A stretch of DNA of 64,000 bases from Verrucomicrobiota bacterium (GCA_023383055.1 JAHDYP010000008.1:11341-75340); one strand, 5' to 3'. Positions 2,411 to 59,076 are shown, counted from the first letter of the stretch. The notes: generated by a model from the letters alone, not told the origin. Numbers and translations: made by a program.

Positions 2411-2627
2411 ACCGGCAAACTATGGACTTGGCGGACATGGCCGCCAGTAGGTGAATACCTACCTTCCGGGGACTTTTGACCGGCCCGTGCGCACGGCGCT
2501 GCGCGGTATGCCCAACTGCGATTAATTGCACCCGACCAGGGCGGCCCGGACGCGCCCGCCCGATCTGCACTATGCCCAAAGTCTCCCTTGACACCCGCTC
2601 CCGCCGACTGAGAGTTAATCCGTTGGA

Positions 2628-3248
2628 ATGAAATCGTTTCCGCAATGCTGCACATCATTGCTCAACCGCGCCTGTGATCTTTTTTGGGAGGCGCGGCTTG
2701 GTATCCGCACGCTCGGCGGCGAGAGCAGCCTTCACCCGGATGCCGAGGATTACGGCTACCTCGCCTATCACACCTATTTTTCCATGTTCGACCGGCTCGC
2801 CCTGCAGCCGTCGGACGTCGTTGCCGATCTCGGCTGCGGCAAGGGCCGGGTCGTTTGCATCGCTGCCACGTATCGCGTCAAGGAAGTAATCGGCATTGAA
2901 ATTGATCCTTCGCTCTGCGCGCAGGCGGAAACCAACGCCGCCCGAATGCGCCGCCGCCGCGCGCCCGTTCGCTTCGCCTGCCAGTCGGCCGCGGATTTTA
3001 ATTACAGCGACGTGACCGCAGTGGTGATGTTTCACCCGTTCGGGGCCGACACCCTGCGTGAGGTGCTCGGCAACTGGCGGAGATCGCTACAGGCAAGACC
3101 GCGCGTGCTACGGGTCGTTTACAGCAATCCCTTGCTCGGCTCGATGATAGCCGGGCAACCGTGGATTGAACTTTGTGAGTGCTGGAATCCAAGCACGTGG
3201 AGCCGCCTGAAGTTTCCCGTTAATTTTTACCGCAGTGTGCCCGCCTGA
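2628..3248 (+). CDS. small class-I SAM-dependent methyltransferase (paralog B)
   Basis: Motif I VADLGCGKGRVV. Paralog of 1748..2410, divergently transcribed from a 217-bp spacer. The 3' end converges on and overlaps the ABC transporter 3' end by 22 nt. Confidence 0.75.
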   Translation: MKSFPQCCTSLLNRACDLFWEARLGIRTLGGESSLHPDAEDYGYLAYHTYFSMFDRLALQPSDVVADLGCGKGRVVCIAATYRVKEVIGIEIDPSLCAQAETNAARMRRRRAPVRFACQSAADFNYSDVTAVVMFHPFGADTLREVLGNWRRSLQARPRVLRVVYSNPLLGSMIAGQPWIELCECWNPSTWSRLKFPVNFYRSVPA

Positions 3249-4948
3249 CGGGAAGCGCCAGCCGTTTCGGCGTTGGCCTCCGCTTCGCCGGCCACCATGG
3301 CTCGTTCCGTTTGCGGGAGATTCACACGCTTGTCGGAGAGCAACTGGCCGAAATCGAGTTTGATGAGGCGATCGGCGCAGGCGAAATACTGTTCATCGTG
3401 CGTGATGACGACAATCGTTTTGCCGCGCGCTCTCAATTCCGGAAGCAGTTGGCGATAGAAAATGTCTTTGAACTGCGGGTCCTGATCGGACGCCCACTCG
3501 TCAAACAGATAGAACGGGCGGTTCTCCAGGTAGGCGGTGAGGAGCGCCAGTCGTTTTCGTTGACCTTGCGATAGGTTCACCGTCGAGAGGTGGCCGTCCC
3601 GGATCTTGACCTTGTGGTCCAGTTGCAATTGCACCAGGTAACTCTTCGCCCGGGTGTCGAGATCGGCTTGCTCCACGCCGAGCAAGCTTTCGAACAGGTA
3701 AAAGTCGCCGAAGACGGCTGAAAAAAGCTGTCGGTATTGCTCGCGGTTTTCCTCGAAGATCGGTTTGCCATCGAGGCGGATTTCACCAATCTCCGGCTCA
3801 TAGAGTCCGGTGAGGATTTTTGCCAGCGTGGATTTGCCGCTGCCATTTCCCCCGACGATAAAAACCAATTCGCCCGGACGGAACGTCAGGCTCATCGGGC
3901 CGAGCACAAAATGGCTGCCATCCTTTTCGCCGTGATACGAGTGGGTCACGCCGACCAGGTCCAGCCGCTCGAACGGCATCTCCTCCCCCGCCGGGATTGC
4001 CTCGGGCCCCGGTGCCGGTGCGTTGGCGGTAAGCGAAAAGCCGAGTTGCTGGATTTTGTGCAGCGAGACATTGGCCCGGCCAAACAACGAAAAGGTGCTC
4101 AACACTCCCGCCAGCGGCCCCATCAGATACAGGGTGGTGATGATGTAACCCGTAAGCGCCTCCTTGCCGATGGTGCTGAAGGCCGGCAGCAGGAAGAGCA
4201 TCGAGCCAACGAACACATAAAACATCAAATGGCTCCAATGCTGCGAAATGGTAAACCGACGCTCCGCGGTCATGTTATGCCGCTGATACGCCTCGGTTGC
4301 GTCGTAAACTCCCCGCGCGAAAAACACCTCGCGCCGCGCGCGATGCAGTTTGAGTTCCTTGATGCCGAGCGTCAGCGCGCGAAAGTGGCCGAACAGCTTG
4401 TCTTCCTCTTCCCGCGCCAGGAGCAACGAGCGAAACGCACCCTTCATCAGGAAGCTGTAGGCAATCGCACCCAAAACGATCAAACCGAGCAGGCTGAGCA
4501 AAACCTGCCAGGAAAGCCACGCCAGATAAACCGCGCCGCCCAAAAGCAACGCGCCATTGACGGCGGTCAGCGACACGGCCAGCAGCGCCTGCGCGATGTG
4601 ATAGATGTCGTCCGTCAGCGCCACCTGCAAACGGGCCGGGCCGACTTCTTCCATCTTACGCAGCGGCGCGTTCAGGATCGAACGGACCAGATCGCGGCGC
4701 AGGTTGGCAATGACGCCCTGGGAAAAACGCACGGCCACGATTTGCGAATAGAAGCTGGTCAGCAATCGGCCCAATCCCAGGGCGACAAAAGCGCTGATAA
4801 TGGCCGCCGTGGTGCGCCCTTGATGGTTCAGCGCGATATTCACCATGGCGATCAAACCGGCGTTGCACGCACCGCTCAACAACGCCGCCACGGTCGTGAG
4901 AATCAACATTCGCCGGCAGTTGCGCAGAACAAATAGGAATAGAACCAT
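3227..4948 (-). CDS. cyclic-peptide-type ABC exporter (fused permease + ATPase, SyrD/PvdE-like layout)
   Basis: Hydrophobic N-terminal half, then an NBD with Walker A GGNGSGKST, signature LSQGQRKRL and Walker B YLFDEWASDQD. Start trimmed to ATG 4948 (MVLFLFV), 20 nt after the megasynthase stop at 4969. Confidence 0.85.
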   Translation of the reverse strand: MVLFLFVLRNCRRMLILTTVAALLSGACNAGLIAMVNIALNHQGRTTAAIISAFVALGLGRLLTSFYSQIVAVRFSQGVIANLRRDLVRSILNAPLRKMEEVGPARLQVALTDDIYHIAQALLAVSLTAVNGALLLGGAVYLAWLSWQVLLSLLGLIVLGAIAYSFLMKGAFRSLLLAREEEDKLFGHFRALTLGIKELKLHRARREVFFARGVYDATEAYQRHNMTAERRFTISQHWSHLMFYVFVGSMLFLLPAFSTIGKEALTGYIITTLYLMGPLAGVLSTFSLFGRANVSLHKIQQLGFSLTANAPAPGPEAIPAGEEMPFERLDLVGVTHSYHGEKDGSHFVLGPMSLTFRPGELVFIVGGNGSGKSTLAKILTGLYEPEIGEIRLDGKPIFEENREQYRQLFSAVFGDFYLFESLLGVEQADLDTRAKSYLVQLQLDHKVKIRDGHLSTVNLSQGQRKRLALLTAYLENRPFYLFDEWASDQDPQFKDIFYRQLLPELRARGKTIVVITHDEQYFACADRLIKLDFGQLLSDKRVNLPQTERAMVAGEAEANAETAGASRQAGTLR

Positions 4949-4968
4949 AAGCTGATGGGTCAGCGGGT

Positions 4969-7900: not shown

Positions 7901-10900
7901 AGATCGAAAAACTGATGCCGCACCCCGATGGGGCGGGTATTCAACATTCCCTCCCAGATCGTCGTCAACTGCCGCTCCGTCTCATCCCGCGGGGCGACGA
8001 ATTCGCCCGCCAGCACAGGTGTTCCCGGGTCGGTCCCGGGCAATCCTTTCCGGTCCACTTTCCCGTTCGGCGTCAGCGGCAATTCAGCCATCGCGACGAA
8101 CGCCGCGGGTACCATGTACTCGGGCAACGCCTCCTTCAGGAACGAACGGAACTCGCCATTCGCGATCAACGCCCCGGGTTTCGCCACGAAATAAGCCACC
8201 AGGCGGTGGTCGCCGGGTGTATCTTCCCGCGCGACGACCACGGCCTGCTTGACGGCGGGATGCCGCACCAGCGCCAGTTCAATCTCGCCCGGCTCAATGC
8301 GAAACCCGCGAATCTTCACCTGTTCATCAATCCGCCCGATGAAGTCCAGATTGCCATCCGGCAGCCGCCGAACGCGGTCGCCCGTCTTGTACAGCCGTGC
8401 GCCGGGATCGTCATCGAACGGATTGGGAATGAACTTCGCTCCGGTCAGATCCGGACGGTTGAGATAGCCGCGCGCCAACCCCGCGCCGCCCAGGTGAAGT
8501 TCGCCCGCTTCACCATCCGGGACCGGACGCAGTCGCTCGTCGAGCACCAATGCCTGAACGTTGGCGATCGGTTGGCCGATGGGCACCGAATGAGTCTCGG
8601 GAAGTGGCGTGGAGGAATCGGCCTCGTAGAGCGTCGCCGTGATCGTCGCCTCGGTTGGTCCGTAAGCGTTGAACCATCGCACGCGGTTGCCGGTGAGTTT
8701 TCGCCATTGAGCCAGGGCCTCGGGAAGCACCCGCTCGTTTCCGGTGACCAACAAGCGGAGTGAGGCCGGTACCGCCGCCCCGGAGCTCTCCAGATCGTCA
8801 ATGAGTTCATGCCACCATGAGGCCGGCAGGTTCAACACGGTGATCCGCTCTTGCTCGACGAAACGCAGGAACAGGTCGAAGGACCCGGTGCATGCCTCGG
8901 AACGTAACACGACCGTCGCGCCACTGATCCAGGCCGGGAAGATCTCTTCGCCGGCGACATCAAAACTGAGCGAGGTGAACTGCAGGACGCGGTCGCCCGG
9001 TGACAATTGATAAATCCCCGCCACGGCCCGGCTGTGATTGGCGAGACTGCCATGACAGATCAGCACGCCTTTGGGTTTGCCAGTGGAGCCGGAAGTGTAG
9101 ATCAAATAGGCGAGATCTTCCGCCTTTGGCTTGGGAACGGGATTCTTCCCGCCCGCCTTTCTTATCTTTTCCCGGTCCGAATCAAGCAGGACGACCGTGG
9201 TGGGACGGCGGACGCCGTCGGATGCCGCCCGCTCATTCACATCGGAAAGCAAATCCGACAGATCTCGTTGTGTGAGGATGACCGGCGGCTGGGCATCGTC
9301 GAGAATGAATCGCAAGCGGTCCTTGGGATAAGCCGGGTCCAGGGGAACGTAGGCGCCGCCGGCCTTGAGCACGCCGAGAATCGCCACGGTCATGCGCCAC
9401 GAGCGTTCCAGGCAAATGCCCACCAGGGTCTCCGCCTTGACGCCAAGTGAACGCAGGTAATTCCCCACCTGATTGGCGTGCGCGTTGAGCTCGGTGTAGG
9501 TGAGGGACATGCCTTCGCCGATCACCGCCACCGCGTCCGGTGAGCGGGTGACTTGCGCTTCAAACATCTGAACGATCGAACTCTCTTTCCGGGCGCCATT
9601 TCGACGCAAGGGATGGGACCGAGGATTTTTGTTTACCGCAATTGGAAGCGACGATCTGGCCGGTTCGAAGCGGGCCGTGAATTGCAATGGTTCGTTGTGT
9701 TGCGCGCGCGCCAGTTCGCCCCGGAGCTCCTCCGCCAGCACGCTGACGTGCGGTTCGTCAAGAATCTGCTCATGCGCGCCGGGCACGAGGTGAACCGCGG
9801 CCCCGCCGCCGGCGAAAGCGTGCCAGCCGTAAGCGTCGTCGAACGAACACCAAAACGGATGGCCGTGGCTGCGCAGGAGCATCACGCGACCCGCGTAGGG
9901 CTTCGTGCGGTGTCGAAACAGGGCGTGGATATGCGTGCGCCAGAGCTGGCGTTGCTCGGGTGGATAGGCGGTCAGGTCCACCAGCTCGTCCACAATCACC
10001 TCGGAGGTCGCGCGCCTGGCAAACACGCGCGCGATCCTCCGCGCAAAGGTGCGCGCGTACCAGCCGATGAACAGGCGACGCTCCGGTCCCGGCCGCCGGA
10101 GCAAACAGCCGGTGAAGTAACATAAATTCCCCGCGAAGCGCGCGAGCCACATCGGTGTGGGCGCGGCGCGGTCATAGGCGGAGTTGGGCGGGATGGAATT
10201 CAGCAGCGCCAACAGCGCCACCCGCTCACCCTGTTCGTGAAGTTGCCGCGCCATTTCATAGGCAACGTTGCCGCCAAAGCAGTAGCCACCCAGGTAATAC
10301 GGTCCTTGGGGCTGAAAGTTCCGGAGGTCGGCGACATAGTGCGCGGCCATCTCCTCGATGGTGCCGAACTCCTCCTGGCCATCCAGTCCGCGCGATTTGA
10401 AGGCATAAACCGGCTGGTCGGTGCCGAGGTGCAGCGCCAACGCGGTGTAGCCCCAGAGCATCCCGCCGCCAGCACCATGCACGAGCATCAGTGGCGGCCG
10501 ACTGCCCTGCGGCTGGATTTCCACGATGCTGGTTGCGCGCGGCGGCTGGCTCTCCTGGCGCAGCAACTTCGCCATCTGCGCGACGGTTCGAGAGTCAAAC
10601 ACCGAAGCGACGGGAATTCGCTTCCCAAACATGGTTTCCACCCGGGCAATCAGCCGCAAGGCCAGCAACGAATGTCCACCCAGTTCAAAGAAATCATCGC
10701 TGGCTCCAACGCGGCTGTGGCCCAAGATCTCCTGCCAGATTGCAGCCAACTGCCTTTCAACCTCGTCGCTGACGGGGACGGCCGGTCGGCGGGATTCGCT
10801 TTCGGGTTCGCCTGGATCGGGCAGTGCTTTGCGGTCCACCTTGCCGTTGGCGGTGAGTGGCAGCGATTGAAGCCGCACAAATCTGGATGGGATCATGTAG

Positions 10901-13900: not shown

Positions 13901-16890
13901 TCGGTGAACGTGACGGTACCGTTCGTTGAGGCGATATGCAGACCCGACAACTCACCGAGCAGCCTGGCAATCCCGGCAGCGATGCGTTCCTTTCGGGCCG
14001 GGAGCCGCGCGAGTGGGTCGCGCTCCGTCCCGTTGCCGTTGGACGGCGGTTCCTGGGCCCCGCGTCCGCCATTCGCGCCGTCTCGCGCCGCGTCGCGGCC
14101 GGTCTTCTGACCATTGCTCGATCCCACTGGAAGCAGTTGGACATTGGCGGAACACGACAATGAATCCGGTTTAACGTCCGAGAGAGCCGGGATGAACGGA
14201 GACGCAGAGCCGGAGCGGACATCGTGCGGCGCATAGGCCGGCTCAATGAAGTGGCGTTTCCGATCGAACGGATAAGTCGGCAGCCGCTCAGAATGTCGTG
14301 GCTCGCCGTGGTGGACGTTGCGCCAATTCACGGTCGCACCCGCAAGCCACATCTGGCCGAGCGAGGTCAATGTCGCTTCAAGGGCAGATGAACTGTCGCC
14401 GCCGCGCGGAAGGGAGGCGCATACGAGTGTCTTTGGGTTTCGAGCGGGATGTAGCTTTGCCAATCCACTGAGCGTCTGGCTTGGGCCGGTTTCGAGGAAG
14501 ATACGTTCCGGAGACCGCAGCAACTCACCGAGTCCGGCGGCGAAGCGCACGGTGTGACGCAGATGCCGAACCCAGTACATCGGGTCGGTTGCTTCATGGG
14601 CCGTTATCAAAGCGCCCGTGACGTTGGAAATGAACGGAAGCTCCGGGGCCTTGAGGTTCAGCGTGCCGACCAATTCACGGAACGGGTCGAGAATCGGATC
14701 CATCATCGCCGAATGAAACGCGTGTGAGGTGCGTAACACTGTGTAGGCCACCGCGTGCTGCGCCAGGTCGCGCCGCAACTCCTCGATCGCTTCGTGCGGA
14801 CCCGCCACAACGCAGGCCGCCGCGCCGTTCACGGCGGAGAGCGAAAGCGAACCATGCAAGCGCATCAGGATTTCCTCCTCAGGCAGGCGCACCGCCAGCA
14901 TGGCGCCCGGGGGCATTCCCTGCATCAGGCGCCCGCGCGCGATGACGAGGGTTAACGCATCCTCGAGCGAAAACACGCCCGCCAGGCACGCCGCGACGTA
15001 TTCGCCGATGCTGTGGCCGATCATCACCTCCGGCTGCACGCCCCACTTCATCCACAACTTCGCCAGCGCGTGCTCGACGACGAACAGCGCGGGTTGAGTG
15101 ATACTGGTCCGGGTGAGTTGTGCCTGGGCATCTTCGATCCTTGCCGCTTCCGGGTAGAGCGTCGTCCGCAGATCGAATTCGAGGTGCGGTTTCAGGAGTT
15201 CGCAGCAAAGGTCAATCTGTTCGCGAAAAGTCGGCTCGGTCTGGTAAAGCTCCAACGCCATGTTGACCTGCTGCGCACCCTGGCCGGGAAACATGAATAC
15301 GACCGGCGGACGGTCGTTTTCCGCGACGCCGGTGAACACCCGCGTCTCGTCGAGAGATGTTAACCCGGCCACCGCGTCGCTCACATCCCGGCAAACCAGC
15401 ATGCGCCGATACGCGAACTCGCGCCGGCCCTTCTGCAAGGTGTAGGCCACATCCGCCGGAGCGAGTTCGGGATGCTGCTGCAGATGCCCGGCTAGATTCG
15501 CGGTGGCTTGATCGAGCGCGCCCTGGGTCTTCGCCGAGAGCAAGAGCAAGTGAGGGCGTTGGGACTTGCCGGAGGGCTTGATCGCCGGCGACTCCTCCAG
15601 CACCACGTGCGCGTTCGTGCCGCCGATGCCGAAGGAACTGACCCCGGCGCGGCGCGGACGGCTCCCTTTCGTCCACTCCGTCAATGCGCCATTCAAAAAG
15701 AACGGGCTGTTTGCAAAATCGATTTTCGGGTTTGGCGACTCGAAGTGCAGATTCGGCGGCAGTTTCTGGTGGTGCAGCGCGAGCACGGCTTTGATGAGAC
15801 CGGTGACCCCGGCCGCGGTGTCGAGATGGCCAACGTTGCTTTTGACCGCACCAATGGCGCAGAAGTGTTTCGCCGTCGTGCCGGCAAAGGCTTGGGTCAA
15901 TCCCTCGATCTCGATCGGATCGCCGAGGGGCGTGCCGGTGCCGTGCGCTTCGATGTATCCAATGGTTTCCGGGGAGAAGCCTGCCATGGCCTGCGCCGTG
16001 GCGATGACTCCAGCCTGACCTTCGACTCCCGGCGCGGTGTAGCCGATTTTTTGCGAGCCGTCGTTGTTGATGGCATAGCCCTTGATGACCGCGTAAACGG
16101 CATCGCCGTCCGCCAGCGCGTCTGCCAGTCGCTTGAGCACGACGATGCCCACGCCCTCGCCAGCAACCGTCCCCGCGGCTTTCGCGTCGAAGGCGCGACA
16201 ATGTCCGTCGGGTGAAGGAATGCCACCCTCCTGGTAAACGTAGGCGCGCCGCTGCGGGAATGAGATCGAAACCCCGCCCGCCAATGCCATGTCGCACTCG
16301 TAGGCGAGCAAGTTCTGGCACGCGACGCATACGGCGACCAGCGAGGTGGAGCACGCGGTCTGGATGTTCAGGCTGGGGCCGCGCAGGTTCAGTTTGTAGG
16401 AGACGCGCGTCGTGAGATAATCCTTGTCGTTGCAGAAGATCAAATGGGATTCACCGAACTGCGCCACTATCTCCGGGTGGGTCAGGACATTGTGCGCGAG
16501 GTACGTGTTCATGCTCATTCCGGCGAACACGCCGATGGCCCCGTCGAATCTGGCCGGGTCGCATGCGGCGTCTTCGAGCGCTTCCCAGGCGCATTCGAGG
16601 AAGACCCGGTGCTGCGGGTCCATCACCTCGGCTTCGCGCGGGGTAAAGCCGAAAAACGCCGCGTCGAATAGATCCGCCCCTTCAAGAATCCCGCGGGCCC
16701 TGACGCAATTCGGGTCATCGTTCGGCACCGTAACTCCCGAGGCAGCCAGTTCTTCGCGAGTGAAGAACGAGATCCCCTCGACGCCGTTACACAAGTTGCG
16801 CCAGAACTCGTCAATGTGACGAGCCTTGGGAAAGCGACCGGCCATGCCCACAATGGCAATGCCGGTGTTGGTTGCTTGGCCACTGCTCAT
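4969..16890 (-). CDS. hybrid PKS-NRPS megasynthase, KS-AT-ACP-C-A-T-TE*-A-T-TE*-A-T (3973 aa)
   Basis: Domain motifs and approximate plus-strand coordinates:
- KS: TACSTS, ~16321-16370
- AT: GHSIGEYVAA 14990-15025; HAFH 14701-14740
- ACP: GFDSL, ~13861-13920
- C: HHIVCDGHS, ~13245-13275
- A-domain cores: SGSSGKPKG 11821-11870, TSGSTGKPKGV 9064-9114, TSGSTGGPKGV 6310-6360
- T domains: GGHSL ~10640-10700, GGNSL 7861-7920, GGNSL ~5110-5165
The start ATG overlaps the upstream NRPS stop (ATGA at 16887-16890). Confidence 0.95.
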   Translation of the reverse strand: MSSGQATNTGIAIVGMAGRFPKARHIDEFWRNLCNGVEGISFFTREELAASGVTVPNDDPNCVRARGILEGADLFDAAFFGFTPREAEVMDPQHRVFLECAWEALEDAACDPARFDGAIGVFAGMSMNTYLAHNVLTHPEIVAQFGESHLIFCNDKDYLTTRVSYKLNLRGPSLNIQTACSTSLVAVCVACQNLLAYECDMALAGGVSISFPQRRAYVYQEGGIPSPDGHCRAFDAKAAGTVAGEGVGIVVLKRLADALADGDAVYAVIKGYAINNDGSQKIGYTAPGVEGQAGVIATAQAMAGFSPETIGYIEAHGTGTPLGDPIEIEGLTQAFAGTTAKHFCAIGAVKSNVGHLDTAAGVTGLIKAVLALHHQKLPPNLHFESPNPKIDFANSPFFLNGALTEWTKGSRPRRAGVSSFGIGGTNAHVVLEESPAIKPSGKSQRPHLLLLSAKTQGALDQATANLAGHLQQHPELAPADVAYTLQKGRREFAYRRMLVCRDVSDAVAGLTSLDETRVFTGVAENDRPPVVFMFPGQGAQQVNMALELYQTEPTFREQIDLCCELLKPHLEFDLRTTLYPEAARIEDAQAQLTRTSITQPALFVVEHALAKLWMKWGVQPEVMIGHSIGEYVAACLAGVFSLEDALTLVIARGRLMQGMPPGAMLAVRLPEEEILMRLHGSLSLSAVNGAAACVVAGPHEAIEELRRDLAQHAVAYTVLRTSHAFHSAMMDPILDPFRELVGTLNLKAPELPFISNVTGALITAHEATDPMYWVRHLRHTVRFAAGLGELLRSPERIFLETGPSQTLSGLAKLHPARNPKTLVCASLPRGGDSSSALEATLTSLGQMWLAGATVNWRNVHHGEPRHSERLPTYPFDRKRHFIEPAYAPHDVRSGSASPFIPALSDVKPDSLSCSANVQLLPVGSSNGQKTGRDAARDGANGGRGAQEPPSNGNGTERDPLARLPARKERIAAGIARLLGELSGLHIASTNGTVTFTEMGFDSLFLTQASLAIEKTFGVRVAFRQLLKEFSSVDTLAAHIDSVLPSEQQEPARIHRDPQGTPLIGTALERANGVVTVPVAESQRELWLASQMSDAASCAYNECRLLHLRGPLKADALRAALQQLVNRHEALRTTFDSTGEFQHIHPALKLDVPAVDLTELNAEARASRWDAIQVAESRGVFHLSNGPLIRAQLIRLGEQEHELMLTIHHIVCDGHSFGILLRELAALYSAETRGVSSGLLTPLQLSDFVNAQTRRRANNGRPDDEAYWVKRFAAGAPMLELPTDRPRPAIRTFDGARASRPLPGALARDLKRVAAQHGCTWFTTLLAGCFGLLHRLSGQRDIVIGIPIADRAMEGGDTLVGHCIHFLPLRATVIEDQSCAEHLGAVREAFLDAHEHQHFTYGSLVQTLNLPRDGDRIPLVSVTFNAARLDGDLTFAGLETDVATNAHSFTNFDLSFDVGEMNGSVQLECRYNRNVFAAETVQRWLGHFQTLLAAIAAEPRQRVWELPLLTAAQREQILVEWNDTRTDYPKDQTVAQLFEEQAARTPGDVAVEFEGARLTYRELNQRANQLAHHLQKRGVGPDVLVAVCLERSLDMIISLLGILKAGGAYLPLDAASPKERLGLMLDEARAPIVLTQDTLRPLLPETDHVLYLDVNEKEVGREPMTQPASKATAGSLAYISFTSGSSGKPKGVCVPHRAVIRLVKNTNYASFAATDVAFQLAPLAFDASTFEIWGALLNGARLVMFPPHAPSLAELGEFIQQRGITTLWLTSGLFHHMIEEQANSLRGVRQLLAGGDVLSVPHVKRALELLPECRLINGYGPTENTTFTCCHPITNASVDQRSIPIGRPIANTQVYLLDQHLQPVPVGVPGELYTGGDGLARGYLNQPELTAENFVADPFANDSSARLYKTGDLARWLPDGNIEFLGRLDAQVKIRGNRVELSEIETVLTRHPAVRECVVVARKDRFGDKQLTAYSVGTNSAPPAVDELRGHLRRALPDYMIPSRFVRLQSLPLTANGKVDRKALPDPGEPESESRRPAVPVSDEVERQLAAIWQEILGHSRVGASDDFFELGGHSLLALRLIARVETMFGKRIPVASVFDSRTVAQMAKLLRQESQPPRATSIVEIQPQGSRPPLMLVHGAGGGMLWGYTALALHLGTDQPVYAFKSRGLDGQEEFGTIEEMAAHYVADLRNFQPQGPYYLGGYCFGGNVAYEMARQLHEQGERVALLALLNSIPPNSAYDRAAPTPMWLARFAGNLCYFTGCLLRRPGPERRLFIGWYARTFARRIARVFARRATSEVIVDELVDLTAYPPEQRQLWRTHIHALFRHRTKPYAGRVMLLRSHGHPFWCSFDDAYGWHAFAGGGAAVHLVPGAHEQILDEPHVSVLAEELRGELARAQHNEPLQFTARFEPARSSLPIAVNKNPRSHPLRRNGARKESSIVQMFEAQVTRSPDAVAVIGEGMSLTYTELNAHANQVGNYLRSLGVKAETLVGICLERSWRMTVAILGVLKAGGAYVPLDPAYPKDRLRFILDDAQPPVILTQRDLSDLLSDVNERAASDGVRRPTTVVLLDSDREKIRKAGGKNPVPKPKAEDLAYLIYTSGSTGKPKGVLICHGSLANHSRAVAGIYQLSPGDRVLQFTSLSFDVAGEEIFPAWISGATVVLRSEACTGSFDLFLRFVEQERITVLNLPASWWHELIDDLESSGAAVPASLRLLVTGNERVLPEALAQWRKLTGNRVRWFNAYGPTEATITATLYEADSSTPLPETHSVPIGQPIANVQALVLDERLRPVPDGEAGELHLGGAGLARGYLNRPDLTGAKFIPNPFDDDPGARLYKTGDRVRRLPDGNLDFIGRIDEQVKIRGFRIEPGEIELALVRHPAVKQAVVVAREDTPGDHRLVAYFVAKPGALIANGEFRSFLKEALPEYMVPAAFVAMAELPLTPNGKVDRKGLPGTDPGTPVLAGEFVAPRDETERQLTTIWEGMLNTRPIGVRHQFFDLGGNSLLAARIVARIEKTFGRKLTTAAIFQSPTIEQLAALLRGGEQKNPRFASSIVEIQSHGSKPPLFLVHGIGGGMLWGYANLARFLGPDQPVYAFNSRGLDSEEFGTLEAMALQYVADLRAFQPWGSYRLGGYCFGGNVAYEMARLLEAQGQTVSFLALFNCPLPNSGYYHVRPTPRFCVNLLRNFSNRLGHVLHLKPEQRRQLVLWRARVIKKHCFNLLNRMRGVTVALDVDDWVDLTTQPEDRRELWATHLRAYADYRPKPYGGHVTLFRTRGHPLVCSFDNACGWGEFASGGVTVHVVPGEHESILDVPHVKLLAKLIEPYLQPDPVTAGGRSDRRAAPPISPEEKHRLLVEWNRTRADYSRESCIHQLFEEQVGRTPDAVAVVFGDQSLTYGELNGRAERLAQHLRGFNVGPDVPVGICIERSFDMVIGVLAILKAGGAYVPLDPAYPSERLQVMVENAGMPVLLTKASLQDRLLFPIATLRIVCVDSLADTAPQEAPQPVAATHPEHLAYVIHTSGSTGGPKGVAMPHRALVNLIAWQLRNSTLKEGGRTLQFASLSFDVSFQEMFSTWCAGGTLVLVNETLRRDPVALWQFIGEMKIERLFLPFVALQQLAEAFKPGTSGDWRLREIITAGEQLQTTPAIVRLFEHLKDCMLCNHYGPSESHVVTACTLNGPPSRWPALPSIGRPIANTEIYLLDEERQPVPVGVAGEIYIGGDCLARGYLHRPDLTACRFFPHPFNEDTRARLYKTGDLARYQPDGNIDFLGRWDEQVKIRGFRVELGEVEATLRQHAKVRDAVVMARADQPGPKRLVAYYISQPAKPCASGELHLFLKDKLPEYMVPAVFVPLEVFPLTPSGKVDRQRMPAPEPSRLELAGGYQPPQTPTQKAVAKIWAEVLGLTHVGIHDNFFHLGGNSLLAVQAIARMGQAFGVELPVAGLFDSPTIALAAEELPQVPCAGETHETNPPPAVLVT
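6950..7720 (-). other. internal thioesterase-like alpha/beta-hydrolase domain TE*2 with Cys nucleophile
   Basis: PPLFLVHGIGGGMLWGY (7661-7720), GGYCFGGNVAYEMA with the Cys codon at 7495-7497, and VVPGEHESILDVPHV (6961-7010). About 70% identical to TE*1 by eye. Lies between T2 and A3. Confidence 0.7.
9720..10500 (-). other. internal thioesterase-like alpha/beta-hydrolase domain TE*1 with Cys nucleophile
   Basis: PPLMLVHGAGGGMLWGY (10441-10500), GGYCFGGNVAYEMA with the Cys codon at 10279-10281, and HLVPGAHEQILDEPHV (9721-9795). Lies between T1 and A2. No HHxxxDG motif in this interval. Confidence 0.7.
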
Positions 16891-23405: not shown

Positions 23406-23463
23406 CGACTCTTTCGGTCTATTCGCATAACAATTTATTCGCTTGGAGGGCGTCGTGTTAGTG

Positions 23464-23499
23464 GGTAAAGACCCCAGAGCGGGTGGAGGTAACGACCTA
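23464..23499 (+). promoter_or_regulatory. phased direct-repeat element (GGTAAAGACCCC-N12-GGTAACGACCTA) in the divergent NRPS / S8-protease spacer
   Basis: Read directly from the DNA. Member of the GGTGAARACCCC family listed in the findings. The second half-site is degenerate. Confidence 0.4.
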
Positions 23500-23637
23500 A
23501 GCGCATAACGTTCCCGAAGCGGCAGGGAGGACACCAAGCCGGTGTCAATGCCCGCCGCTGTGCCCGAGGTTGTTTTCCCCGGCTTTTGAGGGTTTCACCC
23601 CGTTGTTGGCTTCGCCTGGTGATGTGTAATGTAGCAA

Positions 23638-37859: not shown

Positions 37860-39776
37860 ATGGTTCTGGCCGCGTGCGGCTTGCTCACATTCATCGCTGC
37901 GCCGATTTCCAAAGCGGATAGCACGTGGAACTATGCCGTCCAGATCAGTGCCACGGTTCAGAGCGCGCCGCCGCAAATCACGCTCACCTGGCCACAGGAC
38001 GATATCGGTGCGCTTCGCTATACGGTTTATCGGAAGGCCAAGGAGGCGACTTCCTGGGGAACCGGCACGGTGCTGGACGGAACAACGACTCTTTACACCG
38101 ACGTCAACGTGGTCATCGGCACAACTTACGAGTATCAAATCGTCAAAGATGCGACGCTGGGATACAAGGGTTTTGGTTACATCTTCAGCGGCATTCAAGC
38201 GCCGTTGATTGACGATCGTGGCAAGTTGATTCTGATCGTGGACAACCGGCACGTCACGGCGCTGTCGGACGAACTGGCCCGCCTGCAAAGCGATTTAACC
38301 GGCGACGGCTGGACGGTCATTCGCCATGACGTCTCGCCCAATGATACGCCATCAAGTGTTCGCAACCTCATTATCGCCGACTACAACGCTGACCCCACGA
38401 AAGTGAGCACGGTATTCCTGTTCGGGCATGTGCCGGTTCTACGTTCGGGGACTCTGAACTACGACGGCCATGGGTCCCGCCCGATGCCGGCAGATGCCTA
38501 CTATGGCGACATGAATGGCAACTGGAAGGGCAACCCCAGCTATCTGCCGTCCGACGTCGAGTTGATGGTGGGTCGGGTGGACATGTTCGATATGCCCGGA
38601 CATTATGCAACGATTCCATGGCCGGACGAAGTGGAGTTGCTGCGGAATTATTTGAACAAGGACCACAACTTTCGCCGGAAACTCGTCACCGTGCCGCATC
38701 GCGCGCTGATGGGGGATCGGCGCGGAGACGCAGAAGGAGTCGCGCCGGCGGCCAGCGGGTATCGGAATTTTCAGCCGCTGCTGGGGCCGGGTAAAATTGT
38801 CCAAGCCAACATTGACAATGTTTCCGCGCCCGAGATGCGCTGGGGGCAGATGCTCGCGGCGGACAGTTATCTCTGGGCGTTCGCCACGGGCGCCGGAAGC
38901 CAGTCGAGCCTCGGCTACTTTGGCACCAACGGGCAATACCAGGATCTCTACAGTTTTGAAGTGGTCGGTCAGGACGCGAAAGCGGTTTTCGTCATGATGC
39001 TCGGCAGCTGGTTCGCCGAGTGGGACGGAACGGACAACTTAATGCGTGCGTTTCTGGCGACGCCGTCGCTCGGGCTGACCGCCTGCTCGGCTGGAATGCC
39101 GCACTGGTTTGTGCATCACATGGGCCTCGGCGAAACCAGCGGCTACGGCACGCGCCTGAGCATGAACAACCGCACGCTTTACCAGAGCCAGGTCAACGTT
39201 TACACGCGCGCAGTTTACATTGCGCTGATGGGCGATCCGACCCTGCGAATGGATCCCGTGGCGCCCCCCGGAGCATTGGGCGGTCTGTCGACCGGGGGTG
39301 GCGTAACGCTGACCTGGCCGGCTTCGGCAGATGCCGTCTTGGGTTATCACGTTTATCGCAGCGCGACGCCGGGCGGGCCGTTCGCGCGCCTGACCGGTTC
39401 GCCCGTGCCTGGCAACACGTTCACGGACCCAACCGCTGCGGCGAACACTTACACCTACATGGTGCGTGCGGTGACACTGCAAACCACGCCCAGCGGAAGT
39501 TATTTCAACGCCAGTCAGGGTGCCTTTGTGACGGTGAACGCGGCCATCGTCGCTTTGCCGATTCAATTGTCCGCGAACTGGGCTGCGAACGGACTGACGC
39601 TCAGTTGGAATTCCCAGATTGGCGCTGCATACCGTGTGCTGGCCAGCACGAATGCAAACCAGACCGACTGGGTCGCCGTGAGCGGCAGGATAACGGCCAC
39701 CGAATTAAACACTTCCTGGACAGATGCAAGTCTGGGTCCCCTCCCGCGACAGTTTTATCGGATCACCAGTCCGTAG
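37860..39776 (+). CDS. secreted FN3-domain protein with gingipain(C25)-like central region and C-terminal RFY domain (paralog 2)
   Basis: ORF track 37743..39776. Start moved to ATG 37860 (MVLAACGLLTFIAAPISKA/DSTWNY), which gives a signal peptide. Collinear with paralog 1 throughout. C-terminus is ...RQFYRITSP. Confidence 0.55.
   Translation: MVLAACGLLTFIAAPISKADSTWNYAVQISATVQSAPPQITLTWPQDDIGALRYTVYRKAKEATSWGTGTVLDGTTTLYTDVNVVIGTTYEYQIVKDATLGYKGFGYIFSGIQAPLIDDRGKLILIVDNRHVTALSDELARLQSDLTGDGWTVIRHDVSPNDTPSSVRNLIIADYNADPTKVSTVFLFGHVPVLRSGTLNYDGHGSRPMPADAYYGDMNGNWKGNPSYLPSDVELMVGRVDMFDMPGHYATIPWPDEVELLRNYLNKDHNFRRKLVTVPHRALMGDRRGDAEGVAPAASGYRNFQPLLGPGKIVQANIDNVSAPEMRWGQMLAADSYLWAFATGAGSQSSLGYFGTNGQYQDLYSFEVVGQDAKAVFVMMLGSWFAEWDGTDNLMRAFLATPSLGLTACSAGMPHWFVHHMGLGETSGYGTRLSMNNRTLYQSQVNVYTRAVYIALMGDPTLRMDPVAPPGALGGLSTGGGVTLTWPASADAVLGYHVYRSATPGGPFARLTGSPVPGNTFTDPTAAANTYTYMVRAVTLQTTPSGSYFNASQGAFVTVNAAIVALPIQLSANWAANGLTLSWNSQIGAAYRVLASTNANQTDWVAVSGRITATELNTSWTDASLGPLPRQFYRITSP
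37938..38071 (+). repeat. partner copy of the 35897-36030 near-identical tract
   Basis: See 35897-36030. Confidence 0.8.
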
Positions 39777-43815: not shown

Positions 43816-44040
43816 AATGTGGGCCGGTGTTCAGGCGAGATGCGCCCGCATCGGCTGCCGATAAGCCGGAAGTGGCACGGTTGGCTGATGAAGGCTTCCG
43901 TGCGCGTGACTACGCGTTTACTGCTGTCTCGACTGTCTAAGTGTCGTAAAGGGCCTGGCGACCCAATTTGAGCTGAAGATTTCCATCGCGGGATGGGTGT
44001 CTCCCCTCCGCCGCCAAAGAGTAGGTGAATACCCCATTGA

Positions 44041-46744: not shown

Positions 46745-46778
46745 GGGGTCTTATCCCGTTCCGCTAGGGGTCTTCACC
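46745..46778 (-). promoter_or_regulatory. phased direct-repeat element (minus-strand reading GGTGAAGACCCC-N10-GGATAAGACCCC) upstream of the GT4-kinase-transferase operon
   Basis: Plus strand shows ggggtcttatcc at 46745-46756 and ggggtcttcacc at 46767-46778, 22 nt apart. Sits 63 nt before ATG 46841. Confidence 0.5.
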
Positions 46779-46840
46779 CACCTGTAAAACGTTCGCTCAA
46801 TCTTTACATTGTCCCTGTGACTGTGAAGTAAAGCCGAGTT

Positions 46841-50357: not shown

Positions 50358-50714
50358 ATGAACATCAACCAACAAGACGGCACTTTGAGCGTGACCGGCC
50401 TTCGCGAATTGAATGCCACCAACGCCCGGGCATTTCGTTCCACCCTGGCCCGGGCGTTGTCGCAAGACCTCAAAGCCATTGAAATTGACTTGTCCCACAC
50501 TCAAGCCGTGGACGGTGCTGGCCTGGGTGCGCTGGTGGCGCTCTATGAGACGGCGAAGGAACGCCGAAAGCAGGAAGGCTTTGCGCTCCGTCTGACCCAT
50601 CCCACACCCCCGGTGCAACAAATGATCGAACTGGCGCGGTTACATCATCTGTTTGAAGTATCCCACCCGGAAAGCACACCGGACGGAACGCGCCCGGCGA
50701 TCGATCTGAAATGA
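50358..50714 (+). CDS. single-domain STAS protein (anti-sigma-factor-antagonist-like)
   Basis: 118 aa. IEIDLSHTQAVDGAGLGALVAL matches the STAS core, but Gly (codon 50514-50516) occupies the position of the usually phosphorylated Ser. Confidence 0.75.
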   Translation: MNINQQDGTLSVTGLRELNATNARAFRSTLARALSQDLKAIEIDLSHTQAVDGAGLGALVALYETAKERRKQEGFALRLTHPTPPVQQMIELARLHHLFEVSHPESTPDGTRPAIDLK

Positions 50715-52841: not shown

Positions 52842-52947
52842 CCCAGCAGCGCGCCTGAAGAGACGCCTCCTGCGTTTTGAACGTTGTCTTACCTCGGGTG
52901 AACACCCCATACCGCCCGCACGGTTGTTCCGCTTAGAATGTCGTGCC

Positions 52948-53535
52948 ATGCAGGAATACAATCATCTCTACCAAGCGACCAAGTCCGCCGGTTCGCCCGT
53001 CCCATTTCAAACGAATCTCCCCCGGCGCATTCTCGTGGTGGATCACGACCCATATGTCTGCCATCTCAGCGCCGACGTGCTGATTCGCCATGGCTACGAG
53101 GTGAACGCCGCCGAAGACGGTGCCGCCGGCTGGGAGGAGCTTCAGGCCTACCACTACGATCTGCTGATCACCGAGCGCGACCTTCCCAAGATCAGTGGCG
53201 TTACATTGGTCAGGAGACTGCGGGCCGCCCGCCTGGCGTTGCCGGTCGTCATGGTGGCAAAAAGACTGCCCGCGCGCGAACTGGCTCGAAACCCGGCACT
53301 TCAACTTGCGGCCGCGCTGTTGAAGCCTCTGCCCGTCGATGCGTTGCTGGACACGGTAACAATCGTCCTGCGCGCGACCGGCAGTCCCCGCGAGCGGATC
53401 CTGCCGCCGCCGAACTCGCAAAGCCAATCATCAGCCGATGGTTGGCAGCTAAAGCCGATCACCACAGCGGCCAACAGCGCCCAAGTGCATCCGGACCTCG
53501 TCCTTGGCTATCACCGTTGGGGATTGAACGAGTGA
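52948..53535 (+). CDS. stand-alone atypical receiver-domain protein
   Basis: REC fold pattern ILVVDHD...DLLITERDLPKISG...VVMVAK...LLKPL. Glu (codon 53173-53175) replaces the phospho-acceptor Asp, DH replaces the acidic DD pair, and the conserved T/S is missing. Start at ATG 52948. Confidence 0.6.
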   Translation: MQEYNHLYQATKSAGSPVPFQTNLPRRILVVDHDPYVCHLSADVLIRHGYEVNAAEDGAAGWEELQAYHYDLLITERDLPKISGVTLVRRLRAARLALPVVMVAKRLPARELARNPALQLAAALLKPLPVDALLDTVTIVLRATGSPRERILPPPNSQSQSSADGWQLKPITTAANSAQVHPDLVLGYHRWGLNE

Positions 53536-53607
53536 ACGGGGCAGACACCGGCATGGACCCATTCCAGTCAAGGACGATCCAACGTTGCTGCGCCCCAGGC
53601 AGCACTT

Positions 53608-54447
53608 TCAACAGGTGGTGACGGTTGTCGGGCAAACCGGCAGGCATGGTCCGCGCGCCAAATCGTCGAACGAGATCACCCGAACGTGTGAACTGCTGGC
53701 GAGCCATTCGGCGGTGGCATGCAGAATGGCCAGCATGGCGGTGTCGGGTTTGCCCTCCCTGAAGTATTCCCACCAATGGGTAACGAGCACCGTGAGTTCC
53801 TGGCTTTCGACCTGTTTCTTGACGGTCTTCAGCATCGTTGGGTAAGGGCGTTGAAACGAAAGCAGGCAGCCCGGATGCGTCAGCAAGGTGGTTCGGCCAA
53901 CCTGCCAATGCGGTCGCTTGAGCATTTTCTTCATCGCGTATTGCGGCCACCAGGCGAAGGGCAACCGCCGCAGTTCAAACCATCCGGCCGAGATGACGCG
54001 AAAGCGTTTGGCGACTTCGCTCACACTGACACGGGAGAACCGGTCATAAGGAGCGACGAACGTCCGGGGCGCGCGACATCCCGCCGCGGCCAGCAAAGCG
54101 GTACCTTGATCAAGGCGATTAGCAAGGTCATCGCGTTGATCAGAGCCAAACTCGAATAGCGAATGATCATAACCGTGTTGCACCACACGGAATTGCGGAT
54201 TCTCGCGCAGATAGCGGACCAGCCCGGTGTTGCTCGCGATCGGAAGCTCCAGCGGTGTATCGGCGCGTTTCGCGAAAAGAAACTTCTCCAGCGCGCCATT
54301 GGCACCGTGAGTGTCCGTGCGCACGTTCGGAATCACCGCAAGGTTCACCGGCAGGCCACGGTGGAGGAACGGACGATAGAGCTGCTCCAGGCACTCGACC
54401 GGCGTCAGGGCATTCGTGTCGTCGTCACGTAGAATGACGCGGTGCAT
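53608..54447 (-). CDS. DUF2334-like polysaccharide deacetylase family protein
   Basis: The start MHRVILRDDDTNALTP... and QHGYDH match my memory of the DUF2334 / PgaB-related family. Start set to ATG 54447, overlapping the upstream GT4 gene by 23 nt. Confidence 0.55.
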   Translation of the reverse strand: MHRVILRDDDTNALTPVECLEQLYRPFLHRGLPVNLAVIPNVRTDTHGANGALEKFLFAKRADTPLELPIASNTGLVRYLRENPQFRVVQHGYDHSLFEFGSDQRDDLANRLDQGTALLAAAGCRAPRTFVAPYDRFSRVSVSEVAKRFRVISAGWFELRRLPFAWWPQYAMKKMLKRPHWQVGRTTLLTHPGCLLSFQRPYPTMLKTVKKQVESQELTVLVTHWWEYFREGKPDTAMLAILHATAEWLASSSHVRVISFDDLARGPCLPVCPTTVTTC

Positions 54448-57813: not shown

Positions 57814-58994
57814 GAGGTCTGAATGGTTTGAGCGAGGCCGGGTTTGTCGGCGGCCAGGTTGCGGATATTTTCGCGGGCGGCCTTGGGCCAGAAGTGCATC
57901 TTGCCGCGTTTGAAATGGCGATGGGCCTGGGCGCAGGCGAGCATGGTCATCGCGAAGCCCACCAGCGTCGCCGGCAAATGGGTCGCGCGCTTCAGCCCGC
58001 GCATCCGCCACCAGCGTTTGAAGCGGAAACTCAGCGCGTCGGGAAACAATCGCCAGAAACGGCGAACTCGCTGAACATGTTCACCCACCAGCCGCGCGAC
58101 CCACTCGGGACTGGCCTCCTCTTTGCGCCGCAGCGTCTCGGCGAGGTTGGTTCTTTGCGTTCCTGGCAGCGTTTTCAAATACTCCACCAACACATGCACA
58201 ATGGTCTGCCCGATCATCTGCCGCTTCTGGTTCTTCAAAAGCTCGCCGGTGGAAGTGTAAGCCTCATAAACATGCGAAGCCTTGTCGGCGACCACGATGC
58301 GACCCGGGTTGAGTGGGTTCGAAAAGAAATCGGTGCAGACAATCGCCTTGATGAAACCATCGTCAATGCCGAGTTCCTTCGGCAGATAGAGCCGGCGGGC
58401 GACTTCGGTCCGGATGCAATAGAGCTGACCGGTCATCTGCCCTTGAGTTGCGCGGTTCATTTCGGACGTGGCCAGCGAAATGCGATCCCGCCAGGATTTC
58501 ACGAGCTTGAGCGACACGTCCTTGATGGGCTGGTCACTGGCGATCCGAGCTTCGGAATTATCCAGCAACGTGCGATACATGTTGAACAAAGTCTCGCGCC
58601 GATTGAATACAATGTCCGAGTCCATGAGAAACAAGAACTCCGCTTCCGGGTGCGACAAACCATGGACGAACGCGTTCCAGGTGTGATTGCGTCCAGCCTC
58701 GCGCATGTCGCGCACGCCGGCGGCAAAGGCGCTGGCGAACGGATGTGATTTCCCCTGCTCCGCGAACACCGCGGCAGCGATGGCCGCCGTGCGATCCGTG
58801 CATCCGTTCGGAATGCAAAGCACTTCGCAGCGTTCGCCACGCGCGCTGAGTTCTTCAAACAACGACTGCTGGAAGAGCGATTCCAGTGTCCGGCGGATGA
58901 CTGCTTCCTCGTTCCACGCCCGGACGGCGATGGACATTCGCGGTGGCTTGGTCTGGGCGTTATTCGTCATGGCATCTTCGACATTGCTTTCCAA
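57810..58994 (-). CDS. GT2-family glycosyltransferase
   Basis: MSIAVRAWNEEAVIRRTLESLFQQS, IPNGCTDRT and FLMDSDIVF (DxD motif). Confidence 0.75.
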   Translation of the reverse strand: MESNVEDAMTNNAQTKPPRMSIAVRAWNEEAVIRRTLESLFQQSLFEELSARGERCEVLCIPNGCTDRTAAIAAAVFAEQGKSHPFASAFAAGVRDMREAGRNHTWNAFVHGLSHPEAEFLFLMDSDIVFNRRETLFNMYRTLLDNSEARIASDQPIKDVSLKLVKSWRDRISLATSEMNRATQGQMTGQLYCIRTEVARRLYLPKELGIDDGFIKAIVCTDFFSNPLNPGRIVVADKASHVYEAYTSTGELLKNQKRQMIGQTIVHVLVEYLKTLPGTQRTNLAETLRRKEEASPEWVARLVGEHVQRVRRFWRLFPDALSFRFKRWWRMRGLKRATHLPATLVGFAMTMLACAQAHRHFKRGKMHFWPKAARENIRNLAADKPGLAQTIQTS

Positions 58995-59041
58995 TGTCAG
59001 TCTAGGCTGGGAGGCCGCCCCTCGCTAAGTAGGTGAAAACC

Positions 59042-59076
59042 TCCCGCTGGCCGGGTGAAAGACCCCATGCCGTCCG
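59042..59076 (+). promoter_or_regulatory. phased direct-repeat element GGTGAAAACCTC-N11-GTGAAAGACCCC in the divergent GT2/GT2 spacer
   Basis: Half-sites at 59042-59053 and 59065-59076. Sits 29 nt before ATG 59105. Confidence 0.5.

Follow-up and report, generated by a model that had tools for sequence, protein, structure and literature searches.

The element GGTGAARACCCC recurs between the genes of a 64,000-nucleotide stretch of DNA from a Verrucomicrobiota bacterium (GCA_023383055.1, JAHDYP010000008.1:11341-75340), which at its full length is referred to here as the window, and is a real and conserved element. It is probably the binding box of a regulator and precedes about ten promoters at a fixed distance. 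These promoters precede genes for extracellular polysaccharide (EPS) and for a nonribosomal peptide synthetase (NRPS) assembly line. The boxes are considered likely to be the operators of a dedicated activator, built into promoters that carry a sigma70-like -10 hexamer (TAnnnT) and no usable -35 element. The lineage in which they are found consists of uncultured Limisphaerales that are widespread in soil metagenomes. To our knowledge, almost nothing is known about the control of transcription in free-living soil Verrucomicrobia, and a literature search on the motif string and on promoter or start-site work in Verrucomicrobia returned no description of the motif and nothing relevant.

Sequence and distribution of the box

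The scans for the element covered the window, which has 61% G+C and an intergenic share of 3.6-3.7%. A preliminary description of this DNA had reported five pairs of the element and three single sites (2450, 44024 and 52897), and all of these were located. The exact 12-mer GGTGAARACCCC matches twice, with 0.01 matches expected, and 24 times when up to two mismatches are allowed, with 10.6 expected. The preliminary description had named equal frequency in coding DNA as a finding that would speak against the element; the eight zero-mismatch matches to the slightly degenerate form GGTRAANACCYC are intergenic without exception (8/8; binomial p~3e-12), and even the bare dyad GGT-N4-ACC lies in intergenic DNA in 11 of its 33 occurrences (p=1.4e-8). 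One box-like 12-mer, GGTGAACACCTA, was seen inside coding DNA at 42627, with no -10 hexamer at the proper distance.

The box extends over about 16 bp, (a)GTrGGTGAArACCyC(a), around the short dyad rGGT-N4-ACCy. GGT-N4-ACC is invariant among the strong boxes and is extended to a 6-4-6 dyad (GTAGGT-N4-ACCTAC) at 2450, while most boxes have arms of no more than 3-4 bp. Asymmetry is seen in the conserved centre GAAr and equally in the core AArACCyC, which is conserved as well. A variant with N3 instead of N4, GGTGAAACCCT, occurs at 958-968(+) and 23589-23599(-), two boxes that the earlier list of eight sites had overlooked. The five pairs of the window are direct repeats without exception, spaced 22 nt from start to start in four cases (22-23 nt at 59032/59054) and 24 nt in one, and the distal (second) box is more degenerate (GGnnAAGACCCCA), retaining mainly the right arm.

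The paired 12-mers had been taken for half-sites phased at two helical turns. The phasing is confirmed, but each 12-mer is a complete box with its own dyad GGT-N4-ACC, and the single sites, which do exist, are not weaker versions of the pairs but complete promoters of the same type. Most of the reported coordinates are accurate; 59042/59065 was about 10 nt off and is corrected to 59032/59054, and 31528 to 31527. Both boxes of the pair 23464/23488 are present, 24 nt apart, though the second is weak. The 'third related site' at 25311 (GTAGGTGTACC) is unconserved in the orthologous loci L047, L049 and L051 (L numbers denote loci from other genomes and metagenomes) and was dropped.

Distance to the -10 hexamer and absence of a -35 element

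The -10 hexamers, and with them the start sites and the positions given relative to them, were read from the sequence alone. A TAnnnT hexamer starts 26-28 nt beyond the GGTGAA edge of the box in 23 of 29 unique promoter sequences from the window and its relatives, and the looser NAnnnT starts 27-28 nt past this edge in 26 of the 29; at any other position TAnnnT reaches no more than 1-3 counts across the same sequences, with a background of about 0-1 per position. On the opposite side, TAnnnT is found at nt 25 after ...ACCCC, followed by an ATG at nt 39, in the window and in all ten relatives' loci with the rightward GT2 gene (10/10, orthologs and related GT2 contexts taken together), and 26 nt after the ACCCC side at 52897. 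The single boxes at 52897 (TAGAAT) and 44024 (GATGGT) share the layout of the rightward GT2 promoter, and those at 2450 and 23589 show the mirror layout. TAnnnT thus starts 27-28 nt from one box edge or 25-26 nt from the other, and the midpoint of both spacings falls on position 5.5 of the 12-mer, the exact centre of GGT-N4-ACC, which marks one box as the functional unit. Measured from the dyad centre of the proximal box, the first -10 base lies 31.5-32.5 bp downstream in either orientation, in agreement with the earlier claim that the element is used both ways. The dyad centre would accordingly stand at roughly -44 +/- 2 from the predicted start site, with the second box, which most of the promoters have, 22 bp further up, at about -66, on the same face of the helix.

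When the pairs are oriented as GGTGAA...AAGACCCC, the gene next to the GGTGAA side is always directed away from the boxes, except at 25267/25289, which is considered separately below. The distance from box to ATG at four non-orthologous promoters of the window is 58 nt (NRPS), 58 nt (Poly_export), 62 nt (GT4) and 61 nt (GT2), and in the further contexts of the relatives it is mostly 43-62 nt, being longer or unclear at L015, L016, L004 and L002. Two classes can be distinguished: a short-leader class with the ATG 53-62 nt from the box and a leader of about 20 nt (958, 23464, 31527, 46767 and 59032), and a predicted leaderless class with the ATG 38-39 nt from the box and 7-9 nt after the -10 hexamer (2450, 23589, 44024, 52897 and 59054). 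Leaderless mRNAs are therefore predicted to be a common feature of the box-dependent genes (ATGs at 2408-2410(-), 23638, 44074, 52948 and 59105).

A -35 element was sought at a spacing of 16-18 bp, where the best match to TTGACA does not exceed 4/6 and is at most 3/6 in 22 of 27 sequences. Two other candidates were rejected: 'TTCACC' within the box would require a spacer of 26-27 bp, and the flanking 'yACTTA' is no better than a 3-4/6 match with a spacing of 17-18 bp. The element is thus not itself the -35/-10 of a general sigma factor, a possibility raised earlier. A related explanation is that the box is read directly by an alternative sigma factor, as an unusual extended -35 element, or by the alpha subunit of RNA polymerase, as an UP-like element, with no separate regulator; the fixed distance to a -10-like hexamer would suit it, and extracytoplasmic function (ECF) sigma factors are numerous in Verrucomicrobia, a neighbouring ECF sigma/anti-sigma pair being present in L054. 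It is nevertheless very improbable. The separation of 16-19 bp between -35 and -10 that marks ECF or other alternative-sigma promoters is not seen, since the box ends 26-27 bp and is centred about 32 bp from the -10 hexamer, a full helical turn beyond the -35 position of the sigma70 family; the hexamer is TAnnnT, whereas ECF promoters combine a CGTC -10 with an AAC-containing -35; with its high G+C content the box does not resemble UP elements; it functions either way round and has a second copy 22 bp upstream; and the ECF-bearing L054 has no boxes.

The same spacing bears on the sign of regulation. Operators of a repressor or of a dual regulator, which would block the promoters until a signal arrives, are distinctly improbable, although the sign is not readable from a sequence, NarL-family proteins can repress and the box abuts the place of the would-be -35 element. 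Promoters without a -35 element should be weak unaided, the boxes stand upstream of the core promoter and not over the -10 hexamer or the start site, and the helical register to the -10, strictly kept across about 25 sequences of independent origin, is a requirement of polymerase recruitment and not of simple occlusion; the closest documented architecture, that of DevR (see below), also activates.

A textbook TTGACA-N17 promoter was observed in the same window at 2588-2625, before the rightward methyltransferase gene (2628/2658-3248). This predicted promoter is evidence that, away from the boxes, the organism makes use of -35 elements of the ordinary kind.

Promoters assigned in the window

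The putative box promoters are listed below with the strand of the box; (-) after a coordinate marks a feature that is read leftward.

958-968, plus strand: single box, N3 variant GGTGAAACCCT; leftward promoter with -10 TATGCT at 926-931(-) and ATG 902-904(-) of a 68-aa open reading frame (ORF).
2450-2461, plus strand: single box, perfect 6-4-6 dyad GTAGGTgaatACCTAC; leftward promoter with -10 TAGTTT at 2417-2422(-) and ATG 2408-2410(-) of the operon for a methyltransferase and a phosphopantetheinyl transferase (PPTase); predicted leaderless.
23464-23499, plus strand: pair of a proximal box 23464-23475 (GGTAAAGACCCC) and a weak distal box 23488-23499 (GGTAACGACCTA); NRPS operon promoter with -10 TAAATT at 23432-23437(-) and ATG 23403-23405(-), 58 nt from the box; kept in L047.
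23589-23599, minus strand: single box, N3 variant; S8 protease promoter with -10 TAATGT at 23627-23632 and ATG 23638; predicted leaderless.
25267-25300, plus strand: pair 25267-25278 and 25289-25300, upstream of the WecG-STAS / GT4 / histidine kinase / histidine kinase / response regulator operon; conserved -10 TAAGGT at 25338-25343 (offset 38), ATG 25389.
31505-31538, minus strand: pair of a proximal box 31527-31538 and a distal box 31505-31516; Poly_export/SLBB gene promoter with -10 GAGAAT at 31565-31570 and ATG 31597, 58 nt from the box; orthologs in L043, L047, L049, L051, L053 and L055.
44024-44035, plus strand: single box; promoter of the second GH9 gene with -10 GATGGT at 44061-44066 and likely ATG 44074; predicted leaderless; box and -10 kept in L041 and partly in L006.
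46745-46778, minus strand: pair of a proximal box 46767-46778 and a distal box 46745-46756; promoter of the GT4 / PRK-kinase / Bac_transf operon with -10 TACATT at 46805-46810 and ATG 46841, 62 nt from the box; orthologs in L006, L010, L012, L018, L041 and L045.
52897-52908, plus strand: single box; promoter of the single-domain receiver gene 52948-53535 with -10 TAGAAT at 52934-52939 and ATG 52948; predicted leaderless.
59032-59066, plus strand: bidirectional two-box promoter; footprints kept in L013, L017, L023, L027, L031 and L037.
Box 59032-59043 of this promoter: proximal for the leftward GT2 / methyltransferase / Wzy / GT4 / DUF2334 operon; -10 TAGACT at 58999-59004(-), ATG 58968-58970(-).
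Box 59054-59066 of this promoter: proximal for the rightward GT2 gene; -10 TATCCT at 59091-59096, ATG 59105; predicted leaderless.

From these coordinates 59032/59054 is predicted to be a compact bidirectional promoter, each box being proximal for one gene and distal for the other. The place equivalent to 23589 is occupied in L049 by a canonical box (AAGGTCTTCACCTAC) with TAAGAT. The assignments of box and -10 shift two start codons: the second GH9 gene probably starts at ATG 44074, which is followed by a good signal peptide (MLFRPIQPARLLLAVILLL), and the start of the leftward GT2 gene is suggested to move to ATG 58970. The 68-aa ORF, a tentative gene at 698-904(-) (MMRLSDGQRSRPG...), lies between the 958 box and the gene 264-701(-), whose start it overlaps by 4 nt, and neither of the two has a Pfam match. 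The ORFs 252-926(+) and 52938-53621(+) were rejected as genes, being wrong frames that encode Arg-rich nonsense without a Pfam hit.

Conservation in relatives and metagenomes

Sequence collections were scanned with the strict direct-repeat pattern GGTGAANACCYC-N14-15-AAGACCCC, which single boxes would escape. It gave 9 matches in 185,579 species genomes, three of them genuine, all in Verrucomicrobiota and two in Limisphaerales, and 37 matches in the JGI metagenomes, about 28 of them genuine and nearly all from soil; in 2.9 million viral contigs there were 0 matches. The remainder (6/9 in species genomes and about 9/37 in metagenomes) were discarded as coding tandem repeats or chance matches in unrelated taxa. 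The genuine pairs from relatives are spaced 22-23 nt in every case, a spacing that the search pattern itself had fixed.

Orthologous loci allow a footprint to be drawn. L006 (Limisphaerales metagenome-assembled genome (MAG) palsa_1396) carries the orthologous locus, with GT4 84% identical, and in its GH9-GT4 spacer the two boxes, about 12 adjoining nt and the TCTTTACATTGT block are kept while the remainder has diverged or carries an indel. A similar pattern is seen in seven orthologs of the 59032 spacer, and footprints were also found at the 23464, 25267, 31505 and 44024 sites in L041, L043, L047-L053 and L055. Phylogenetic footprinting, which the preliminary description had proposed, therefore shows box, -10 hexamer and start codon to be kept while the spacers diverge.

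These data bear on a repetitive extragenic palindromic (REP)-like or otherwise mobile intergenic repeat, or a structured RNA hairpin, with no part in transcription initiation. Each box can form a hairpin of 4-6 bp (for example GTAGGTgaatACCTAC at 2450) and the box is confined to intergenic DNA. The probability of such an explanation is negligible: the box lies upstream of the predicted -10 hexamer and hence outside the target mRNA, its position and spacing are kept at orthologous promoters while the flanks diverge, the roughly 28 metagenome loci stand almost all before EPS/NRPS genes, and the pattern is missing from the viral contigs and genuine in only three matches from the species genomes. 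A search of the whole window with the Rfam 15 covariance models at the gathering score also gave 0 matches. The boxes do not lie in the manner of REP elements and bacterial interspersed mosaic elements, that is at the 3' ends of genes and in no fixed relation to promoters or gene classes. The earlier view of a protein-binding cis-element rather than a mobile or REP-like repeat is upheld by the fixed spacing to -10 and ATG, by its retention at orthologous promoters and by the EPS/NRPS contexts. An apparent covariation of A-T and G-C at box positions 3 and 14, considered as a sign of RNA structure, was set aside: orthology confounds it, and each of the four possible base combinations is found.

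Two loci show how the element varies. In L024 (2894-2928) the leftward GT2 operon has been swapped for an unrelated gene and the leftward -10 hexamer is gone, with both boxes and the rightward promoter intact. L053 has boxes with GGC for GGT (GGCAAACACC, GGCAAAACCC) and one with an N5 spacer (GGTCTTCCACC), at 9880-9930 and 14420-14450, and the recognition helix of its regulator is unchanged, which suggests that the box tolerates more variation than the window alone implies.

Gene content of the regulon

The box is found at ten of about 13 transcription-unit starts in the window. Pfam assignments uphold the gene labels of the preliminary description. The left part of the window carries the PPTase, methyltransferase and ABC exporter genes beside two genes for NRPS; the S8 protease follows, and then the operon of WecG-STAS, GT4, two histidine kinases and the NarL-type regulator. 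Further right lie Poly_export/SLBB genes, two GH9 genes, the GT4 / kinase / Bac_transf genes, a STAS gene, the single-domain receiver and the leftward GT2 / methyltransferase / Wzy / GT4 / DUF2334 operon; the 'atypical receiver' of the earlier account is 52948-53535, with a single REC domain.

In other genomes, where the operons are rearranged, the starts have pairs of their own: before Wzy (L019), a DUF2334 deacetylase-like gene (L016, L026), Wzz/BY-kinase-like genes (L015, L034, L004), GT2 (L037) and an NRPS condensation starter (L046, L039). Among the genuine metagenome pairs with an identifiable flanking gene, none stands before a gene of an unrelated functional class, several loci having ended at contig edges. 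The proposed link between the NRPS and the glycan operons is thus corroborated, as in relatives the same boxes precede Wzz/BY-kinase-like, Wzy, DUF2334, GT2, GT4, Poly_export and NRPS or polyketide synthase (PKS) starter genes. Contexts of this kind, nearly all of them EPS or NRPS genes, favour a dedicated EPS and NRPS/PKS regulon in a soil Limisphaerales lineage over a REP-like repeat or a general promoter element, as far as can be judged from strict pairs and, for the source genome, from the 64-kb window.

Genuine-looking pairs were also observed between genes for an outer-membrane efflux protein (OEP) and a DUF1573 protein in more distant Verrucomicrobiota (L002, 6427-6461; L035, 6638-6672), and beside a PLD-like gene and a Wzz-like protein in L004 (5378-5411). 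Judging from these contexts, the regulon may extend to other envelope functions.

The WecG protein of the window (25389-26918) is a WecG/TagA glycosyltransferase fused to two STAS (anti-sigma-antagonist-like) domains; other Verrucomicrobia retain the fusion even where identity falls to 49%, and the same cluster also encodes a separate STAS protein (50358-50714). The fusion may have a role in partner switching.

Candidate regulator

30866-31495, plus strand: NarL/FixJ-type response regulator with a REC domain and a GerE helix-turn-helix (HTH); last gene of the operon behind the 25267 pair; candidate box-binding activator.

This regulator, fed by two adjoining histidine kinases, is on slightly better than even terms the protein most likely to bind the box. 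Its candidacy is plausible from its location, the box pair before its operon, the binding geometry of its family and the co-occurrence of the module with boxes. It is a standard NarL-family protein (matches to VraR at 3.5e-29 and DevR at 2.9e-28), whose closest solved relatives are VraR, DevR/DosR, DesR, NarL, EvgA and RcsB, DevR being second-best. It is preceded by the two kinases, one of the HisKA_3 type, and 9 nt separate its stop codon from the distal box 31505. As the last gene of an operon that a box pair precedes, it may activate its own expression.

The gene order NRPS-(S8)-WecG/STAS-GT4-histidine kinase-histidine kinase-response regulator-Poly_export is kept in L047-L053 and L055, and in L015 a copy of the regulator with 85% identity lies 1.1 kb from a box pair. 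The regulator is unusually conserved: across relatives it is 84-100% identical as against 61-67% for WecG-STAS, and the database clusters that share 88% identity or more with it number over 120. For L053 and L055 the identity is about 90% by eye, with the recognition helix unchanged or nearly so, while WecG-STAS is only 61-67% identical. Clusters that bear the module of two kinases and the regulator have boxes. The module is missing from two more distant WecG-STAS clusters, L054 (from a Pedosphaera MAG, which has the ECF sigma/anti-sigma pair in its place) and L056, and in neither was an intergenic box found over 15-18 kb.

Alternatively, the same architecture of activator boxes at -44/-66 may be served by a protein encoded elsewhere, of LytTR, winged-helix or AraC type, the local NarL-type regulator being a mere member of the regulon. 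LytTR promoters (AgrA, ComE, PlnC) have direct repeats with a period of 21-22 bp just upstream of -35-less promoters, and LytTR proteins control exported products and polysaccharide (AlgR); the 22-bp period, the direct orientation of all pairs and the missing -35 of the present promoters match these, and the core AArACCyC is asymmetric. The LytTR units, however, are A/T-rich, 9 bp long and separated by spacers of 12-13 bp. The single boxes described here work both ways at an equal distance from dyad to -10, which suits a symmetric dimer better than an oriented monomer. Among the window ORFs scanned with Pfam, the GerE domain of the regulator is the sole DNA-binding domain, as the preliminary description had stated, and no LytTR, AraC, OmpR-type or other such domain was found besides it; clusters lacking the kinase-regulator module also lack boxes. 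A binder encoded elsewhere is therefore considered unlikely.

The first histidine kinase (28200-29741) is a REC-PAS-HisKA-HATPase protein of 513 aa in the window, a HisKA-HATPase protein of only 243-260 aa in L047-L052 (L047 8177-8908, L049 8126-8908) and a multi-PAS protein of 794 aa plus an extra receiver in L055 (11147-13979). It seems that the sensory input changes rapidly in evolution, in contrast to the nearly constant regulator.

Comparison with known systems

The nearest documented counterpart is DevR (DosR) of Mycobacterium tuberculosis. In this NarL-family protein, same-phase tandem boxes at -42.5 and -63.5 of tgs1-Rv3131, consisting of a conserved primary and a degenerate secondary box that are bound cooperatively, have been documented experimentally together with the activation of a divergent promoter pair, and DevR promoters have two to four boxes and never a single one (PMC3177182). 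The likeness lies in phased tandem boxes 21-22 bp apart from centre to centre (predicted here at about -44/-66), in the combination of one strong and one weak box and in the two-box divergent promoter pair. The Dev box differs in being an 18-20 bp palindrome of unrelated sequence, whereas the present box is asymmetric with the short dyad GGT-N4-ACC; five promoters here have a single box and half are predicted to be leaderless; and organism, signal and regulon (EPS and NRPS as against dormancy) are different, the present system being known from sequence only.

Other regulators share parts of the design. ComA of Bacillus subtilis and the LuxR-type proteins at lux/tra boxes are GerE-type HTH dimers on 6-4-6 or 20-bp dyads, centred at about -42 to -44 of -35-less promoters, and ComA drives the NRPS operon srfA. 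Their box sequences are different, ComA uses a dyad plus a third half-site and not two full boxes 22 bp apart, and LuxR-type proteins depend on a ligand and not on phosphorylation. At the Bordetella fha promoter, dimers of the NarL-family regulator BvgA are aligned on one face of the DNA, about 22 bp apart, from the core promoter up to a high-affinity site; its half-sites are inverted heptads (TTTCCTA) and the high-affinity site is distal, whereas here the proximal box is the better conserved. The boxes of the window represent a familiar class of system, a response-regulator regulon with tandem boxes, with a new box sequence, and not a new principle.

The analysis provides promoter rules that can be put to the test (the box, its 22-bp phasing, the fixed distance to the -10 and the frequent predicted leaderless starts), defines a regulon shared by matrix polysaccharide genes and a secondary-metabolite assembly line, and gives a regulatory map with corrected gene starts for an uncultured and abundant soil group. 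It also suggests which regulator to express for activating the NRPS/PKS cluster. If the proposal is true, box and regulator would constitute a portable switch, and this silent cluster could be switched on in a heterologous host by expressing the regulator in an activated form.

Proposed mechanism and points against it

In the proposed mechanism, a dimeric regulator would bind the well-conserved box, a second dimer would be recruited cooperatively to the weaker box, and the bound regulator would recruit RNA polymerase to promoters unable to fire alone. About ten transcription units would thereby be switched on together, covering EPS synthesis and export, the two GH9 hydrolases, the S8 protease, the NRPS line with its PPTase and methyltransferase, and the stand-alone receiver. 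That a single two-component pathway, two histidine kinases acting on one NarL-type regulator, directly co-activates these -35-less promoters, half of them predicted to be leaderless, and couples nonribosomal peptide or polyketide synthesis to EPS synthesis and export is a tentative proposal, which falls a little short of an even chance.

Several points weigh against this interpretation. The start sites are inferred, as are activation (as opposed to repression) and the identity of the protein, while box, phasing, -10 spacing, conservation and the gene content of the regulon are direct observations. The weak symmetry with arms of 3-4 bp, the conserved asymmetric GAAr and the direct orientation of five pairs out of five are not predicted by a simple symmetric dimer, and the metagenome pairs, having been found with a direct-repeat pattern, are uninformative on pair orientation; asymmetric, always direct boxes that work both ways could represent a binding mode undescribed for this regulator family. 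What links the regulator to the boxes is positional association; only two clusters (L054 and L056) serve as negatives for co-occurrence, and they are also the most distant; and the survey of DNA-binding domains and the box census are those of the 64-kb window, so that other regulators and further boxes may exist outside it.

The pair at 25267/25289 is a further misfit. It has neither a gene nor a -10 hexamer on its GGTGAA side, and its conserved hexamer (TAAGGT/TAGGGT) is on the other side at nt 38 instead of 25, about 12 bp or one helical turn further away. L051, L053 and L055 are without an S8 protease gene. Their homologous pair separates the divergent NRPS/PKS starter and WecG-STAS genes, and on the NRPS/PKS side its distances are the usual ones, with TAGCTT, TAGTCT and TAATCT at nt 27 and, in L055, the ATG at a distance of 62 nt. 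In the lineage of the window, the S8 gene stands between the NRPS and WecG operons with its own 23589 box, and the NRPS operon has a separate box pair. The comparison suggests that the 25267 pair of the window now serves only the WecG operon, and the relatives hint at why its spacing deviates.

Other observations

The S8 protease gene itself (23638-25209) is present between the NRPS and WecG operons in the window, L047 and L049 and absent from L051, L053 and L055; in the lineages without it, a neighbouring PKS-NRPS hybrid whose starter is of the AMP-binding type takes the place of the condensation-starter NRPS. At 35762-39776 the window encodes two adjoining paralogous proteins of about 660 aa with a faint Peptidase_C25-like match, and these paralogs are kept after the Poly_export genes in all relatives, where they are without Pfam annotation.

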